Notes: generated from the sequence alone by a model not told the origin. DNA of 36,536 bases from Candidatus Iainarchaeum sp. (GCA_038886995.1 JAWALG010000008.1:1-36536); one strand, 5' to 3'. Shown: positions 14,475 to 33,769, counted from the stretch's first letter. Numbers and translations are program-made.

Positions 14475-15860
14475 TTATTTCTTATATAATTTGTTTATAA
14501 TATACTCTGCTACATGTTCTTTGTATCCCATTTCAAGCATAACTTTCCTAAGCTGCTCTGGTTGGTACTTTGCCTTAGTTGGCTCTAAAGCAGCTATTGC
14601 CCTTTCAATTGTCTTTAAGTCAGCTTCGCTTAATTCCTCCTTTTTAGTATCTGTTTCCTTTGCTTCTACTATTTCCATCTTTTTATCAGAAGTTACTTCA
14701 AACTTATCTTTACTTTCTGCAATTGTACTCTCTGGTTTGGGCTTTTCAGAGGCCGCCACATATGGCTTTGTCTCTACGAAAACATCGTTTTCTTTTGGCA
14801 GCGGCTTTGATGCTGGACTAGTAATTTCCCCACCAGCGAAAAACGTCTTTTTTGGCTTGGCGCTTTCTCTTTCCGTGCCAAGAGTTGATTTCCCCGGAAG
14901 CTCTTCTTTTTTTGCCCATGTTACGAGTTCTTTCTCACGCTTTACACTTAAACCTTCTTTTTCTGATTTTATTTTCATCCTTACAAATGCTGCAACTATT
15001 AAAATTCCGATAAGCCCTATTATTATAGCAACTAGCCAAAACAAGTCGTTGGGCTTTATTGGCAACTCAGTGCCAAATAAGTTAACTGAGTTTTTATCAG
15101 TTTTTCCTTCAGTTGGTGTTGGTGATATTTTCTTTGCAGTTGCTGTTTGTGTTACTGCTGGTGCAGGGGTTGAAATCATGGGCCTAAAAGTAACATAAAT
15201 CTCAGAATCTCTTATCTTGTTCGCGTCTTTTATTACATAATAATTACCATCTTTTTCGTGGTATGTAGGTATCATCTGGATTAATTTGCCTTCAACCAGA
15301 AACTTCATCTTTTTTACTGCTTCTTTTGGCCTTGGAATTTTTACAATTATTATATTCTCCCTTTTTTCAATTTTAGCGAAATATTCTTTTTTGTTAATAG
15401 CGCTTAAACCTTTGTTTATAGTTTCAATGTCTTCAGGACTCCACTTTGCAAAGTAATTTACATCTGCCGTGTTACCATCAGGATTTGCCTTTAATTTGCA
15501 CTCAATTACCCTAATCATTACTTTGTAAGCTTCGCCAATATCTGTCAAAATTCTCTTATTGTTTTCGTCTGTCTCTGGCGCTTGAATGAGTCTTTCCATA
15601 GAATCTAGTAATTCTTGAATAGTTTTTCTTTGTTCTGAGGTACAATCTCTTTCCCAAGCGGAAATAACTTGTGCCTTATCCTCTAAAGATTCACTTATCA
15701 CAACGTTTTCTGTGCTTTTTGTAATGATTGTTCCATCTGCCTTTAATTCGTAAATCTTCTCGTAAGAAAACTGGGTTTTGAATGGCATATCAGCATTAGC
15801 AAAAACAGCAGATATTGAAATAAACAAAATTAGACAGATATTCTTAATTTTTATATCCAT
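14475..15860 (-). CDS. Single-pass membrane surface protein with a long charged cytoplasmic tail
   Basis: Signal peptide from ATG 15860 (MDIKIKNICLILFISISAVFA), Pro/Thr linker, TM helix, Lys/Glu-rich tail and a terminal helical module (LRKVMLEMGY). Confidence 0.8.
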   Translation of the reverse strand: MDIKIKNICLILFISISAVFANADMPFKTQFSYEKIYELKADGTIITKSTENVVISESLEDKAQVISAWERDCTSEQRKTIQELLDSMERLIQAPETDENNKRILTDIGEAYKVMIRVIECKLKANPDGNTADVNYFAKWSPEDIETINKGLSAINKKEYFAKIEKRENIIIVKIPRPKEAVKKMKFLVEGKLIQMIPTYHEKDGNYYVIKDANKIRDSEIYVTFRPMISTPAPAVTQTATAKKISPTPTEGKTDKNSVNLFGTELPIKPNDLFWLVAIIIGLIGILIVAAFVRMKIKSEKEGLSVKREKELVTWAKKEELPGKSTLGTERESAKPKKTFFAGGEITSPASKPLPKENDVFVETKPYVAASEKPKPESTIAESKDKFEVTSDKKMEIVEAKETDTKKEELSEADLKTIERAIAALEPTKAKYQPEQLRKVMLEMGYKEHVAEYIINKLYKK

Positions 15861-15953: not shown

Positions 15954-17336
15954 GTGAATCCTGCTTTCAGATCAATTTTTACTGATTGCTTTTCCGAAAA
16001 GACATATTTAAAAAAGATAAGGTTAAAAGTTAATACAAAGCCCTTCATATATTTTCGCAAAATATTAATAGTGATGCTACTTTCAGTATTTGCCGTATTG
16101 GCTTCTGCCCAGTTTCCACAGCCAACTTTTCCAACACCTAACTTTCCAGAGAGTGCTTTTCCAACACCAGACTTAAATCTGCCTGGCGGTGTGCCAGGGA
16201 TGCCAGGCACAATGCCAGGGTTGCCCGGGACACTGCCTGATCTAAACTTACCTGGGGGTATGCCAGGTTTCCCAGGTGGTGATTTCAACCTTCCCGGTGG
16301 TATGCCAGGTTTCCCAGGTGGTGATTTCAACCTTCCCGGTGGTATGCCAGGTTTCCCCGGAGGCAGCATGCCAGGTTTCCCAGGTGGTGATTTCAACCTT
16401 CCCGGTGGTATGCCAGGTTTCCCCGGAGGCAGCATGCCAGGTTTCCCAGGTGGTGATTTCAACCTTCCCGGTGGTATGCCAGGTTTCCCAGGTGGTGATT
16501 TCAATCTCCCAGGAAGTATGCCAGGGCTGCCAGGCGCCCCTGGAGGAGCTGGAGGAATTGCCTTACCAAATATGAAAATTGATTTTGCTTTGCAAAACTT
16601 ATTGTCTGAATATAAAGCTGGAAAATCTTTGGAAGTCGCTGCTCGGAACTTAGGTATAAAGGTAAGCAAGAATTCTGTTTTAGTTTCAGTAATGGCAGAC
16701 AGCAATTTTAATCCTCAAAGATGGGGAATGACTGACATTAATGAAGAAAAATCTGGGCAACTTTCTTTGTATACTGGTTATGTTGCAGTTGATAAAATAG
16801 AAAAAATGAGCGATGATAAAAGTGTGAATTACATAATGGCTGCAAGATTGCCAGGTGAGGTAATTCATGAGATAATATCAATTAAGTTGTCGCCAGATCT
16901 TCTTGCAATAGTAAACTGCATGAAGCATTTCAAGGAAAAATGTGATGTTGCGACCATTGCGAGTGAAAATTCCCTTGACTATAAAAATGGCTCTGTGCTG
17001 GTTTATATCACAACTAAAAATAATGCTAAGCCATGCGTTGAAACAAACATAGTTGAAGAAATTCCTGATAAGGTTGATCCAACCATAAAAACTTTCAAAG
17101 GTTATGTGCCAGTTGCAAAGCTTGAAGATTTATCAAATTGTGCTGATGTTGATTTTGTAAGCGGTGTGGTAGTAACCGGCATAAAGCTTGGCATATGTTG
17201 CATATTGCTTCTAATAATTGCAGCTTTATTTACAATTTACCTTATATTCTTTGTATACCTTAGAAAAAGGGAAAAGGAAAAGGTAGACAAATTGTGGAAT
17301 TTGCTGGCTCTGAAAAGACAGAAGGGGGAGCAATGA
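15954..17336 (+). CDS. Membrane-anchored surface protein: Gly/Pro-rich tandem repeat + two subtilase-propeptide-like domains
   Basis: Signal peptide ([18 protein letters not shown]), PGGMPGFP repeats, two similar alpha/beta domains and a C-terminal TM helix followed by RKREKEK. The start is uncertain (GTG 15954 or ATG 16074). Confidence 0.8.
16257..16525 (+). repeat. Coding tandem repeat: 42-nt unit ([14 protein letters not shown]) interleaved with 24-nt unit (GGSMPGFP)
   Basis: Five copies of GGDFNLPG and two of GGSMPGFP, nearly identical at nucleotide level (ggtggtgatttcaaccttcccggtggtatgccaggtttccc). Confidence 0.95.
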
Positions 17337-20300
17337 AAAAGGCATTTTTTATTGCATTGATTTTAATTGCTTTTGTTAGCTTTCCATACGCTCAAGCAGT
17401 GCCTGTAAGTGCTACTGACTGCAGAGGAAACTCTCTAACTTTAATGGATGGCAACTATGAGTTTCAGGGTGACATTACATGTGCTTACGTTTATATTTAT
17501 GCCAAAAAGCAGGATACTACTATTGATTGCCAGGGCGCCAAATTTGCAGCATACTATTTCTCTTACTACCCGGGTGATGGAAGCACCATTACCATAAGAA
17601 ACTGCAAATTCGAGCCTTATAGAAATTATTCGAGCTATAGCTACCATTATTTTTCAGAAACAAAGAGCGCTGGTTTTGAGTATATAAATAACACATTTGA
17701 GAATGTTTACTACCAGGTACAGCGCACTTATTCAAAGAAAGCCAAAATAGACATGAGCTTTACTGACAACAATATGCTCAATTCGGGATTTTACTTCGGT
17801 TTTTATGATTACGACTCAAAGCAGCTGGATCTCAACATAAACCTCACAAACAACAACCTAACAAACTCACTTTTTTATGTTTACTTCTGGGACTACTACA
17901 ACCAAAGCATATACCCCAATTTATATTTTGATATTCGCAATAACAATTTCAAGAATTCTTACCTAAGATTGTATTTTTACCACTACTACTTTAACCTTCA
18001 AAGTGACATTAATCGGCAAATTTCTATTGTTGACAACAACTTTGAACTTTCACAAGTATATCTGCAAAATTATTACTATAACTACAGTTCTCGTCTCCGA
18101 GACGTTAATCTTTATTTGGAAGTAAAAAGAAATCTTTTCAACAATACATCATTTTATCTTTATGACTATGGCTATAGGTATCCCAAATTTAAAAAGACTT
18201 TACCATCTAGAGATACACACATCGAGCTTACAGAAAATGATTTTAACTTAGCTCTCGTTTTTCTGTATTTGTACCCATATTATTGGTTTACCGACACTAA
18301 TATGGAGTTAATTTTTTCAAGAAATAAACTTCATGCTACAACCTTGAATATTCATGATTACAGATATGCACAAAATGGCAAAATAGAACTTTCCTACAAT
18401 GACATAAATAGATCACAGATAAGCTTCGGGTATTGGAACTACTGGTATTGGTACTACTGGAACTGGTGGTACTACCAATGGTATTATGCTTGGTATTACT
18501 GGTATTATTACGGCATAATAATTGACCCAAAGATTAGTGAAATTAATGTTCTTGGCAACAAAATTGAAAAGAGCAAGCTTGACTTTTTGGGATACTGGCC
18601 TTCAGCATACTCAAGCTTGACCATAAGCGATAACATTTTCAGTGGCTTCTACTGCCCACCTAATCTAAAAGAAAGTGAGTGTAGTACCTACTACAAAAAC
18701 ATGAGCAGTATTTACTGGGTTGGGCTTAATCAGCTTAGTTTGCCGACCAAGAACAATACTCTTATTTCCAACAATGAGTTTTATGGAGATAATAATTATA
18801 TTGGTTCTGCAATAACCCACTTGTCAGATCCTTATAACAGACCATACTACGGCGGTCCTTACGACTACTGGTGGATGTGCTATTACTGGGGCTACTGTGG
18901 ATGGTACTATTATTACTACTATTATTACTACTACAATTACTATTACTATTGGTATTATTGGTACTACTGGTATTATTACTACTATTACTACTGGTACTAT
19001 TATGCTTACTATTACCCATACAGCTATTGGTATTACTACTATTATTACTATGCTTATTGGTATTACTACTACTATTATTATTATTGGTACTACTATTACT
19101 ACTGGTACTACTACGGCTACTACTACAGATGGTACTACTGGTACTACTACAGGTACTACTACTATTACTACTGGTACTACTACAGATACTACTACAGATA
19201 TTATCCTTTCTTTGACATCTGGGAAAAAGGCGTTTTCGAGCTCTCAAACAACACCTTTAGAGGTTTCCATAGTGGAATTGAGACATTATCTGCTGGAGAT
19301 GGGCAAACTGCAGTTATAAAGAACAACACTTTCGAAGACAACAAATACGGGATTAAATATATAAGCAGCAATGGCACGATGCTTGTTTACGCCAACATTT
19401 TTGCTGACAATGAGGTTGGGATAGGCGGTATAAGCGGCACAGCCGGCGCTACACCATATTTCCCATATGCGTATCCAGGAGACGGTCCGATATCTGTATA
19501 TGATAACCGCTTTGAAAATAACCGCAAGTGGGCTATAAAGTATGTTGGCGCTGATATATGGTACGCGCCATACTATAAGCCATCAGAGGATGGCATATAC
19601 AACTACGACCCAGCAAATAGGCGCTCTGGCCCTATGTTCACAAGGCAGGAAGTTGATGATTACCTTAAGGAATCAAAGACAATGCTTATCTGCATGGCTA
19701 ACAATGACTTCACTGCAATGCCAAACACTGGCAAAAATGCAACTGAAGGAGCAATAAGAAGAATTTCAGATGCAGCTAACTATAATGGCCAATGCCTTGG
19801 GTTCTGCAGCGGTGCTATAAACAGCGCACCTATTGCTGACTTTGAGGTAACTACAAGCAAAGGAGTTTCGGACTTGACAGTTAATTTCTATGATCGCTCT
19901 TACGATAAAGATGGCAATATTGTCTCATGGCAGTGGGATTTCGGTGACGGAACATACAGCACAGATAGAAATCCTTCACATACTTACACAAGCAATGGGC
20001 CCTTCACTGTAACCTTGACTGTTAAAGACGACGGCGGCGCCAAGAACAGCAAACAGAAGAAAATTACCCCTTATGACACCGCTTCAATAACTGACATATC
20101 AGTGGAAGATATTTCAGCAGGTGAAAGTGCGCAGATAAGCGTAACATGCACAAAAGACCTGGAAGGTGTGCTAAAGGTTTACTTTGATCCTCTCGGAGCA
20201 AATACTAAAATCTATGAGTCAACCTATAAATGCAACTCTGGCGCAGTATCAGTAGGCCCACTCACGGAGATAGGCGTATACCTTGTAAGGTATGACCTTA

Positions 20301-20467
20301 GTGTGCCTTCTAGCTCCTGCACAAAATGCAGCGCAGAGAAGGAGTTCATTGTAAAGAGAAGTGCAGTAACAACAGCACCAGAAGAGCCAGTTGTTGCAGT
20401 TGTTGCCTTAATCCTTGTATTTTCAGTTTTGTATGTGGGCAGAAAAATTAAGGGAAATAAGTACTAA
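17333..20467 (+). CDS. Large secreted Tyr/Trp-rich surface protein: right-handed beta-helix (NosD/CASH-like) repeats, poly-Tyr tracts, PKD domain, C-terminal PE-TM anchor
   Basis: ATG 17333 overlaps the upstream stop (ATGA) after GGGGGAG. Signal peptide [22 protein letters not shown]; repeated I.NN.F.N rungs; PKD motif SWQWDFGDGTYSTDRNPSHTY...VTLTVKD (~19826-20070); C-terminus APEEPVVAVVALILVFSVLYVGRKIK. Confidence 0.9.
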   Translation: MKKAFFIALILIAFVSFPYAQAVPVSATDCRGNSLTLMDGNYEFQGDITCAYVYIYAKKQDTTIDCQGAKFAAYYFSYYPGDGSTITIRNCKFEPYRNYSSYSYHYFSETKSAGFEYINNTFENVYYQVQRTYSKKAKIDMSFTDNNMLNSGFYFGFYDYDSKQLDLNINLTNNNLTNSLFYVYFWDYYNQSIYPNLYFDIRNNNFKNSYLRLYFYHYYFNLQSDINRQISIVDNNFELSQVYLQNYYYNYSSRLRDVNLYLEVKRNLFNNTSFYLYDYGYRYPKFKKTLPSRDTHIELTENDFNLALVFLYLYPYYWFTDTNMELIFSRNKLHATTLNIHDYRYAQNGKIELSYNDINRSQISFGYWNYWYWYYWNWWYYQWYYAWYYWYYYGIIIDPKISEINVLGNKIEKSKLDFLGYWPSAYSSLTISDNIFSGFYCPPNLKESECSTYYKNMSSIYWVGLNQLSLPTKNNTLISNNEFYGDNNYIGSAITHLSDPYNRPYYGGPYDYWWMCYYWGYCGWYYYYYYYYYYNYYYYWYYWYYWYYYYYYYWYYYAYYYPYSYWYYYYYYYAYWYYYYYYYYWYYYYYWYYYGYYYRWYYWYYYRYYYYYYWYYYRYYYRYYPFFDIWEKGVFELSNNTFRGFHSGIETLSAGDGQTAVIKNNTFEDNKYGIKYISSNGTMLVYANIFADNEVGIGGISGTAGATPYFPYAYPGDGPISVYDNRFENNRKWAIKYVGADIWYAPYYKPSEDGIYNYDPANRRSGPMFTRQEVDDYLKESKTMLICMANNDFTAMPNTGKNATEGAIRRISDAANYNGQCLGFCSGAINSAPIADFEVTTSKGVSDLTVNFYDRSYDKDGNIVSWQWDFGDGTYSTDRNPSHTYTSNGPFTVTLTVKDDGGAKNSKQKKITPYDTASITDISVEDISAGESAQISVTCTKDLEGVLKVYFDPLGANTKIYESTYKCNSGAVSVGPLTEIGVYLVRYDLSVPSSSCTKCSAEKEFIVKRSAVTTAPEEPVVAVVALILVFSVLYVGRKIKGNKY
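18431..18511 (+). repeat. Short Tyr/Trp low-complexity coding tract
   Basis: 27 codons YWNYWYWYYWNWWYYQWYYAWYYWYYY (14 Tyr, 9 Trp). Confidence 0.95.
18902..19204 (+). repeat. Poly-tyrosine coding tract (TAC/TAT/TGG mosaic)
   Basis: 101 codons: 79 Tyr, 12 Trp and 10 other, with no stop codon. Confidence 0.97.
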
Positions 20468-20535
20468 TTTCTATTATCTTCTAGTGGCTTTACGCACTGC
20501 TAAGAAATAAAAAACTCTTTCAACATATAGCTATT

Positions 20536-21414
20536 ATGCTTGTGGTTTACTCTGATGATTTTTTGAAGCACTCTTTCATAAACCATCCTGAGAGCCCAGG
20601 TCGGCTTTTCTCAATAAAAAGCGTACTTGATGAGAAAAAAGGTTTCCAATACATTATGCCAAAAGCCGCTAGCAGTGATGACCTTCTTAAAGTACATACT
20701 AAGGAACTTATCGAAGACCTAAAAATGCGCTCAGAAAGACGCCTTGGCGATGCTGACAACCCATTTGTCTCAAATACTTTTGAGATAGCAAAGCTTAGTG
20801 CTGGTGCTGCCATAGAAGCAGCAAAGCATGCTGACAGCAAATGCTTTTCCCTTGCAAGGCCACCAGGCCATCACGCTGGCAGGAATTTCTTCGGCGGCTT
20901 CTGCTACTTAAATAACATCGCCGTGGGGATTGCAAGTGTTCTGAACAAATATGGCCGTGCAATGATTGTTGACTTTGATGTGCACCTTGGCCAAGGCACT
21001 ATGGATATATTTGCAGGCAGCGATGCTGTTTTTTATCTCTCATTCCATCAAGATGCAAACACTATTTATCCTTGGCATGAGCCAGTAGCTGAAGAAAAAA
21101 ATATACGTCTTTTTGCTCTAAGCTCAGGCATAGGTGATGCAGCTTACCTTAAAGTATTTGAAAAGGGATTCAGACAAGCAGTGGCTGAATTTAAGCCGGA
21201 TCTCATTGCTTGCTCAGCTGGCTTTGATGCTTATTACAGGGATTACCCTTACGTTGGTAGTTCTCTTTGCATCAGAAAAGAAGAAACTTTTAGGCGCATC
21301 GGTGAAATAATTGCAAGCGCTAAGAAACCAGGCTTTGCTGTTTTAGAAGGCGGTTACGAAGTTGAAACACTTGGCAACCTTGCTTATAACTTCCTGCGGG
21401 GTTGGCAAAAATGA
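20536..21414 (+). CDS. Histone deacetylase / AcuC-family Zn-dependent deacetylase
   Basis: HPESPGRL, RPPGHHA, GFCYLNN, DFDVH, SFHQ, SAGFDA and VLEGGY motifs. Confidence 0.95.
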   Translation: MLVVYSDDFLKHSFINHPESPGRLFSIKSVLDEKKGFQYIMPKAASSDDLLKVHTKELIEDLKMRSERRLGDADNPFVSNTFEIAKLSAGAAIEAAKHADSKCFSLARPPGHHAGRNFFGGFCYLNNIAVGIASVLNKYGRAMIVDFDVHLGQGTMDIFAGSDAVFYLSFHQDANTIYPWHEPVAEEKNIRLFALSSGIGDAAYLKVFEKGFRQAVAEFKPDLIACSAGFDAYYRDYPYVGSSLCIRKEETFRRIGEIIASAKKPGFAVLEGGYEVETLGNLAYNFLRGWQK

Positions 21415-33397: not shown

Positions 33398-33601
33398 GAT
33401 CTAGTTACAGCTGCTCACGGGCATTTATTCCGTATAAATAATTCTAATACATATGTAATACCACTGAGTCACCCAAGTGGCCAAGCATATACAAAAACAC
33501 TTCGGAACTCATACATGGGCTACTTATCTGAAGGTCTAAAAAAATGGGCCAAGCAACCTGACAAAGTTTGCCGATATCAAGACAGAAGCAATGCGGGGTA
33601 G
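33398..33601 (+). pseudogene. Possible C-terminal fragment of a uracil-DNA glycosylase superfamily gene
   Basis: A startless open frame of 67 codons, DLVTAAHGHLFRINNSNTYVIPLSHPSGQAY..., contains a UDG motif-B-like VIPLSHPSG and stops inside the tRNA 3' end. Confidence 0.4.
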
Positions 33602-33675
33602 CAGATTCGAACTGCTGAAGGCACTAAGCCACAGGGCCCTCAACCCTGCCCCTTAGACCGCTCGGGCAACCCCGC
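33592..33675 (-). tRNA. tRNA-Leu (anticodon GAG)
   Basis: The reverse complement folds as acceptor GCGGGGT/ACCCCGC+A, anticodon arm CAGGG-TTGAGGG-CCCTG, a long variable arm and T arm AGCAG-TTCGAAT-CTGCT. 84 nt, no intron, CCA not encoded. Confidence 0.97.
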
Positions 33676-33769
33676 ATACCTAGTTGCTTCCTATTAAGCT
33701 TCTTATTAATAATCTTCTTTAAAATTAGTTATTAAATGTTGCTGTTTTTAAATTACAAGGCAAAAATAC

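Follow-up and report, generated by a model that had tools for sequence, protein, structure and literature searches.

Two overlapping genes in a Candidatus Iainarchaeum genome pair a predicted propeptide-fold membrane protein with a predicted β-helix surface protein carrying conserved poly-Tyr/Trp tracts

The DNA considered here is a stretch of 36,536 nucleotides (the window; JAWALG010000008.1), which makes up contig C8 of the genome of Candidatus Iainarchaeum sp. GCA_038886995.1 (866 kb in 38 contigs, 89% complete; G000 in the following). Its plus strand carries two overlapping genes for putative surface proteins, termed A (16047..17336, start uncertain) and B (17333..20467), which an earlier note had read as a translationally coupled pair of low-complexity surface proteins, Gly/Pro-rich and elastomer-like in the case of A and poly-Tyr in the case of B. 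The two genes are real: A stops at 17336, the ATG of B lies at 17333, and the sequence ATGA at 17333..17336 is shared. Hydropathy places hydrophobic segments at both ends of either product, as expected from the proposed signal peptides and C-terminal anchors, and does the same for the divergent gene C. The low-complexity regions are present in both proteins as well, but neither protein is mainly of this kind, since most of each consists of folded domains. The pairing is conserved. Among 215 genomes of the phylum, A and B adjoin each other in all four that contain an A domain, namely G000, G002 and G004 (same genus as G000; G004 is 96% complete) and G010 (a different genus); the pair thus recurs beyond the genus, and the possibility that the two genes might never be adjacent elsewhere did not materialize.

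The 1044-amino-acid (aa) protein encoded by the open reading frame (ORF) of B starts with a signal peptide of 22 residues, followed by a right-handed β-helix (17405..18427) that was delineated by structure modelling and rung analysis. Further rungs towards the C-terminus (19226..19567) are homologous to the G010 protein; the Pfam family Beta_helix matched B with 25.6 bits, as compared to a cut-off of 25.9, at an E value of 1e-5. The AlphaFold model shows strands with pLDDT mostly 70–95 across residues 25 to ~340. Structural comparison (VIA) aligned the β-helix with a phage tailspike (Z 24.8, root mean square deviation (rmsd) 3.4, 319 residues aligned) and with the adhesin PfbA (Z 22.0), and the ESM Atlas assigned B to NosD/Beta_helix (0.90). 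B is therefore predicted to be a surface-anchored, right-handed parallel β-helix rod, a type of fold in which rungs of 22–35 residues are stacked and form Asn ladders. In the fold of residues ~25–440 it is similar (Z 20–25) to β-helix adhesins and tailspikes such as PfbA (3zpp/4mr0), EtpA (8vba) and CBA120 TSP3 (5w6f) and to the families Beta_helix (PF13229) and NosD (PF05048), and like the adhesins it appears to be an elongated surface rod, predicted to stand on a PKD/Ig stalk. However, identity to the structures is 7–17%, and no counterpart was found for its ladder of Tyr-containing loops and its two Tyr/Trp inserts of 28 and 121 aa.

Short Tyr motifs occur in the same loop of successive rungs. 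In the rung analysis, which used 15 rung anchors, Tyr or Trp was found at 28 of 88 loop-start positions versus 9 of 154 in the rung cores. Both long aromatic tracts are expansions within this inter-rung loop: tract 1 (18428..18511, residues 366–393) contains 14 Tyr and 9 Trp among 28 residues, and tract 2 (18842..19204, residues 504–624) 86 Tyr and 15 Trp among 121, the rung directly before tract 2 having been missed by the rung pattern and placed by eye. Since tracts and Tyr motifs share the loop register, one face of the rod is predicted to form an aromatic ladder capped by two large aromatic inserts. In total, B contains 186 Tyr and 33 Trp (219 aromatics). Up to 25 Tyr fall within 30 consecutive residues of B, whereas the maximum for the other ORFs of G000 (1744 in total) is 11. 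Milder Tyr/Ser-rich ORFs, with 10–11 Tyr per 30 residues, are located on G000 contigs C5 (11048–12415), C11 (2–385), C19 (8493–9362) and C31 (9320–10564).

The stalk of B comprises a PKD domain (over the cut-off) and a Cys-containing Ig-like domain (19820..20356). It is common to a paralogue family of ten other G000 ORFs, and when cluster representatives were searched with full-length B, the PKD region was hit in all 150 matches listed. About seven paralogues end in a tail similar to that of B (20378..20467), which consists of a PEE motif, a transmembrane (TM) helix and the basic sequence RKIKGNKY. According to an excerpt of PMC6098224, a motif, a TM helix and basic residues form the tripartite C-terminus of archaeosortase substrates. 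B shares this layout with the archaeosortase/exosortase substrates of the PGF-, PEF- and PEP-CTERM types, but differs from them in the motif itself (PEE/PE[ITL]/DE in the B family), and the NCBIfam sorting-signal models returned no family for any of three C-terminal pieces. Two archaeosortase-family genes of G000 exceed the TIGR04178 cut-off (43.1 and 33.4 bits vs 23), both remaining below all subfamily cut-offs. C-terminal processing of B and its anchoring by an archaeosortase would be consistent with this layout. An Ig-like domain with a CxxC-like pair, followed by a [P/D]E-TM-basic tail, defines a lineage-specific surface family (window 20300–20467; G000 contigs C6, C7, C11, C19, C20, C23 and C30); judged from sequence, this tail is probably an undescribed sorting signal.

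Full-length orthologues of B are present in G004 (87%) and G002 (77%). Tract 2 has 121 residues in all three species and is identical at 114 of 121 residues in each pair, as compared to ~52% expected from composition alone according to a hand estimate. When B is divided into seven regions, the tracts occupy the top two ranks of conservation in all three pairs, with the β-helix at 57–84% and PKD plus Ig at 84–91%. At the DNA level, silent differences were observed at 23–34 of the 83–84 shared Tyr codons of tract 2, and third positions of the Tyr frame take 31 of 38, 46 of 58 and 45 of 56 base changes, indicating purifying selection on a sequence of invariant length. Such a pattern of changes rules out both microsatellite slippage and a shadow frame. 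The tract is also spanned by contigs assembled from the runs X1 and X2, each from a different study, and its total length is the same there; insertion rows inside the repeat cancel out, the tool having skipped 104 letters within the repeat in this comparison. The reading of the tract as a microsatellite expansion or shadow frame, with the two genes as chance neighbours, could draw on the TAT/TAC runs that are shadow frames in many contigs, on several other frames that are also open over the tract, and on the abundance of NTGA overlaps, which mechanical gene calls placed at 67 of 517 same-strand neighbour pairs of G000. It is opposed by the position of the tract in frame within a 1044-aa gene, by the third-position bias (~80% of base changes), by the absence of indels in three species, by the constant total length in the contigs of both runs, and by the recurrence of the adjacency in another genus. 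This reading is already largely refuted, and we rate it as extremely improbable.

Real proteins hardly ever contain long Tyr runs. A scan of 185,579 species genomes for the exact Y6-W-Y5 codon pattern yielded a single stretch, which is the locus of the sister species G004; the scan may leave out the own genome, and G002 does not contain the exact pattern. Scans for poly-Tyr/Trp DNA yielded at least 113 metagenome stretches and 14 viral ones, the longest stop-free WYYYY frame among the matches listed being 351 aa. The eight longest WYYYY frames of the 127 listed loci were judged by eye to be shadow frames or simple repeats. Runs of six Tyr occur in 32 of the 215 phylum genomes; among 30 loci read, frames of >110 aa were limited to G002, G004 and one G000 gene. 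The literature searched, at the level of titles and abstract starts, contained nothing on poly-tyrosine archaeal surface proteins or on this A–B system.

Chorismate synthase was not found in any of the four genomes with the pair, and none of them contains a Trp synthase alpha match over the cut-off. Since these two enzymes were not detected, the organism is likely to depend on outside aromatic amino acids. A tract that is kept unchanged in a genome-reduced archaeon, despite the lack of detectable aromatic synthesis, suggests a function that needs near-pure Tyr/Trp at fixed length. As for its conformation, the non-Tyr residues (Trp, Arg, Gly) of residues 585–624 show a helical spacing (96 degrees, p 0.002 vs shuffles, in a segment picked after inspection), and the AlphaFold model contains helices, of low confidence, in the tract region; a helical form is thus predicted for the tracts. 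Residues 563–624 also carry a period-2 signal (p 0.009). The tracts might be membrane-active, their aromatic helices inserting into a host membrane or wall to anchor or open it, while A masks them until contact. The helical spacing and the modelled helices would suit such a role, as would the 219 aromatics spent on each B despite the likely dependence on outside supply. On the other hand, the period-2 signal would also suit a β- or amyloid-like form, Tyr is polar for a membrane core, and the lineage has no known host within this analysis, so that we regard membrane activity as rather improbable.

Chains of Tyr and Trp support hole-hopping, and tract 2 might be taken for a redox element, i.e., a dense aromatic chain for the quenching of radicals or the transport of holes or electrons along the rod. 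In line with this idea, 83% of the tract is Tyr or Trp, its Trp residues keep a fixed spacing, and a CxxxxxC-like pair at the beginning is conserved. Yet no gene for a redox partner adjoins any of the four loci, and B contains no heme or metal motif; a redox function is hence considered highly improbable. The tract represents a natural model for the translation, export and aggregation control of a poly-aromatic sequence.

Gene A codes for a signal peptide, a Gly/Pro repeat, two propeptide-like domains, a C-terminal TM helix (17193..17249, from hydropathy) and a basic tail. The Gly/Pro/Phe low-complexity region (16110..16574), which is N-terminal and distal from the membrane, is built from units such as PGGMPGF and PGGDFNL, with a DNA tandem repeat at 16254–16525. 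Its 155 residues include 44 Gly, 37 Pro (81 of 155 together) and 16 Phe, but neither Tyr nor Lys. It is the variable part of the protein, with 155 aa in G000 and 76 in G004, and is cut by the contig start in G002. The conserved part consists of two tandem domains of ~92 residues, domain 1 at 16572..16847 and its tandem repeat, domain 2, at 16878..17171. Searches of these domains against Pfam returned no family for any of three members at E values up to 10, and there was no match among PDB sequences. The structural model, however, is confident (mean pLDDT 83), and 13 of its top 16 structural matches (VIA) are subtilase propeptides, prosubtilases or I9 inhibitors, the best being Tk-SP (ProN; 3afg_B) with Z 7.5, rmsd 2.6 and 78 aligned residues; 8c4z_A aligned to model residues 97–202, covering domain 2, with Z 5.4. 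The ESM Atlas placed the A domains in CspB prodomain clusters (0.93). A Z score of 7.5 is moderate, and the assignment is supported mainly by the consistency of the match list and of the two methods; the core of A is predicted to consist of two tandem domains with the subtilase-propeptide (I9/S8 prodomain-like) fold, a four-stranded antiparallel sheet under two helices. Foldseek reported no match at E 0.001 for the model of A or that of B. A profile of the A domain, run against a large protein collection, retrieved the four known proteins alone among 7999 candidates.

According to an excerpt of PMC10580911, subtilase propeptides act as chaperones and inhibitors, with the β-sheet binding two helices of the client. 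Each A domain resembles subtilase propeptides and I9 inhibitors (Tk-SP ProN, 3afg; CspB prodomain, 4i0w/PF18425; PCSK9 prodomain; POIA1, 1v5i) in its predicted α/β fold. Unlike them, A contains two to three tandem copies, has a C-terminal TM anchor, lacks a protease in its chain or adjoining it, is partnered by a gene for a β-helix protein, and yields no sequence-profile match. S8 proteases were not detected in G000 or G004, and one each was found in G002 and G010, unlinked to the pair and unmatched by the A profile. The possibility that A is the missing propeptide of a split subtilase was rejected: four S8 proteases checked have 177–201 residues before the catalytic Asp (one Asp was not located by motif), and the A profile matches none of the four.

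The predicted fold would also be compatible with A being a surface-tethered, multivalent subtilase inhibitor or decoy of the I9 type, which shields B from the secreted proteases of neighbours or hosts and need not bind B. The structural matches include the inhibitor POIA1 (Z 6.0), the repeats number two in G000 and three in G010, and subtilisins favour aromatic P1 residues; as G000 and G004 yielded no S8 protease, the target would be foreign. Inhibition by propeptides, however, usually proceeds via a C-terminal tail in the active-site cleft, albeit not essential in some cases (excerpt of PMC10580911), and each A domain continues into a linker or the TM helix. Moreover, the two genes are also paired in G010, whose B carries no Tyr tract in need of protection, and the S8 proteases of G002 and G010 show neither linkage to the pair nor a match to the profile. 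An inhibitory role of A is therefore deemed unlikely, albeit worth serious attention.

The pair of G010 provides a built-in control. When the A domains and, separately, the non-PKD part of B were used as queries, both searches had their best match outside the genus on one contig of G010, with 1.9 kb between the two. One weaker, unlinked match was obtained in each search (G212 and G171). The G010 locus codes for an 899-aa protein comprising a β-helix, PKD, Ig and a PET-TM tail, followed via ATGA by a 395-aa A-type protein with a signal peptide, three A-type repeats and a C-terminal TM helix; the gene order is reversed as compared to G000. The A-type protein lacks a Gly/Pro repeat, and the B-like protein, with 4.6% Tyr, has no tract. 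A refined profile of the A repeat likewise detected four of the 215 phylum genomes, with adjacency in all four. With both low-complexity tracts missing from the G010 pair, the folded domains are what the partnership is based on; the pair either predates the tracts or has outlived them. The Gly/Pro repeat is present in the three genomes with the Tyr tract and absent from the one without, which, as a single evolutionary contrast, weakly favours a masking role for the Gly/Pro tail.

A search with B region 20–825 found nothing among 8000 candidates, a blank that says little because the four B sequences tried are themselves absent from the collection; of 221 pattern matches in a metagenome search for related loci, none was confirmed. 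The copies of gene A in relatives carry the source label Ca. Diapherotrites archaeon. The best metagenome match for the DNA of the locus comes from a hot-spring metagenome, which may be the source of the DNA, and a second hot-spring study contains a population ~92% alike.

The ATGA overlap of the pair is seen in three of the four genomes (G000, G002 and, with reversed gene order, G010). The translational coupling proposed earlier fares less well than the overlap itself, as it was deduced from the overlap alone and B of G004 has no ATG at the junction; NTGA overlaps being ordinary in G000, the ATGA motif is weak evidence on its own. The start of gene A had been set at GTG 15954, which is probably too early. 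G004 has stop codons in the corresponding stretch, the protein collection places the start at ATG 16074, which gives 420 aa, and translation from the ATA in frame at 16047 would provide an ordinary signal peptide of 21 residues; the choice among GTG 15954, ATA 16047, GTG 16071 and ATG 16074 is uncertain. In-frame ATA codons are candidate starts that would give a normal signal peptide to A in G000 and to B in G004; the positions concerned by these irregular gene starts are window 16047 and L024 9300–9330 and 8250–8320.

Resilin- and elastin-type elastomers are Gly/Pro-rich proteins with dityrosine cross-links. The earlier note had suggested, as one of two possibilities, that the Gly/Pro repeat of A and the poly-Tyr of B co-assemble into a cross-linked, elastomer-like surface matrix. 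The Gly/Pro-rich repeats with Phe as aromatic stickers, the abundant Tyr of B and the joint presence of repeat and tract in three genomes, with both absent from the fourth, are in accord with this proposal. In contrast to resilin and elastin, however, Tyr and Gly/Pro reside in separate membrane-anchored proteins, the pair occurs without repeat and tract in G010, and the Gly/Pro region, which varies twofold in length, offers no Tyr or Lys for cross-linking within the repeat. A random cross-linking block would, besides, not need an exact length and fixed Trp/Arg positions. As to oxidative cross-linkers, multicopper oxidase (PF07731), heme peroxidase (PF00141) and DyP (PF04261) were not found in any of the four incomplete genomes in searches with working controls, though such an enzyme might come from another organism; tyrosinase (PF00264) was not found either, in a search whose control was silent.

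Radical SAM enzymes gave 14 matches in G000, all on contigs other than that of the locus. Among the 13 proteins scanned, six exceeded NCBIfam cut-offs (HxsB, Elp3, Tes, AmmeMemoRadiSam, MiaB-like and TYW1), four more belong to an Hxs cluster, and three are without an assignment. A role of these enzymes as cross-linkers of the tract was dismissed, as the genes are unlinked and mostly assignable to other jobs, and the cluster on contig C9 comes with a His-Xaa-Ser precursor of its own. Composition is all that still speaks for the elastomer reading, which is judged very unlikely. What holds of the earlier reading is the conserved pair of genes, with propeptide fold and β-helix rather than elastomer and Tyr as the basis, and the alternative in which A serves as chaperone or shield of B gains an independent footing from the predicted propeptide fold. 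The His-Xaa-Ser radical SAM cluster (G000 C9, 14041–25047; locus L244) comprises HxsB over the cut-off, three HxsC-like proteins, a SPASM-type enzyme, an HxsD-like protein and an HxsA-like precursor bearing HSS/HAS repeats; similar clusters are located on G002 C11, G004 C8 and G010 C13.

The reading we tentatively place first, somewhat short of thinking it probable, is that B is a sticky surface adhesin with aromatic tracts and A a membrane-tethered escort of propeptide fold, which folds or masks B in export. It builds on the adjacency in four of four genomes, the purifying selection on the tracts, their rung register, the PKD stalk and the absence of a linked protease, together with the predicted folds of both proteins and the predicted helical tracts. 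B would be exported by Sec and subsequently held at the surface by a sortase or by its TM helix. Its aromatic face and tracts would then grip a host cell, a surface or other B molecules. A, tethered in the membrane, would contact B and use its propeptide-type sheets to fold or mask it; the Gly/Pro tail, a variable and disordered add-on, may help to mask the tract.

Several observations weigh against A as an escort of an adhesin. The match to the propeptide fold is moderate: a Z score of 7.5 can reflect a common arrangement according to the tool, ACT-like domains follow at Z ~5, and neither Pfam nor PDB sequences were matched. Known propeptides chaperone their own protease, not a β-helix. The model of B is unreliable (pLDDT <50) at residues ~395 to ~847, both tracts included. 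Similarity of the G010 B-like protein to the β-helix of B is weak (E 2e-6; hhalign probability 83%), and the protein could be a paralogue; since three of the four genomes represent one genus, the adjacency amounts to two independent observations. Both gene starts are irregular in G004, where the signal peptide of A stands in another reading frame, close to a run of T, and no ATG for B occurs at the junction; assembly error, an unusual start codon or decay may account for this. Co-folding of the A domains with B residues 23–812 gave a score of 0.00, which speaks neither for nor against contact.

A bolder version of the escort reading, which we consider unlikely, envisages a surface organelle in which a natural poly-Tyr/Trp structure of 121 residues, constant in length and register, is displayed by the β-helix rod and adheres to another cell or inserts into it. 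The rod would be made exportable in trans by a dedicated chaperone derived from subtilase propeptides, with a disordered Gly/Pro/Phe tail that masks the tract. If true, ordered poly-Tyr would have its first natural example, and the known roles of propeptide folds would widen to a client that is not a protease. This analysis adds three points: A is predicted to have the propeptide fold, the pair also occurs free of tracts, and the tracts keep the register of the rungs. Both folds belong to known types. The libraries and literature searched contained neither a β-helix gene combined with a tandem propeptide gene lacking a protease nor the conserved insert of poly-Tyr/Trp. The A–B pair is a candidate for mediating attachment of these uncultured archaea to cells or surfaces.

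Gene C (14475..15860, minus strand), transcribed divergently from A, codes for a single-pass surface protein according to hydropathy and occupies the same position in G004. Its membership as a third component was rejected: homologues were seen in 11 of 21 genomes, most of them being incomplete and belonging to genomes that lack the pair, and no C-like gene adjoins the G010 pair. This comparison includes a full-length homologue at a contig start in G006 and a G002 contig that begins inside A. Gene C is probably not part of the A–B pair. A gene for a secreted HExxH zinc-peptidase-like protein lies divergent from the G010 pair (L043 3203–4735), at the place of gene C in G000.

The flanking genes are unrelated housekeeping genes, coding for enolase, a DUF123 nuclease, a histone-deacetylase-family protein and flavodoxin, and including grpE-dnaK-dnaJ. 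A scan of the locus for sigma-70 promoters and terminators gave results at chance level, the sigma-70 model being unsuited to archaea. An AT-rich box ~25 bases 5' of the ATG of the deacetylase-family gene is kept in three genomes (window 20490–20538; L024 12460–12503; L025 4015–4060). It resembles an archaeal promoter of a leaderless mRNA, which suggests that the A–B unit ends upstream of the box. A tRNA-Leu(GAG) is encoded at 33591–33676 of the window on the minus strand. Elsewhere in G000, the tetraether lipid synthase Tes exceeds its NCBIfam cut-off at C4 32787–34724 (locus L246); a DPANN archaeon with a Tes gene may itself synthesize membrane-spanning lipids.

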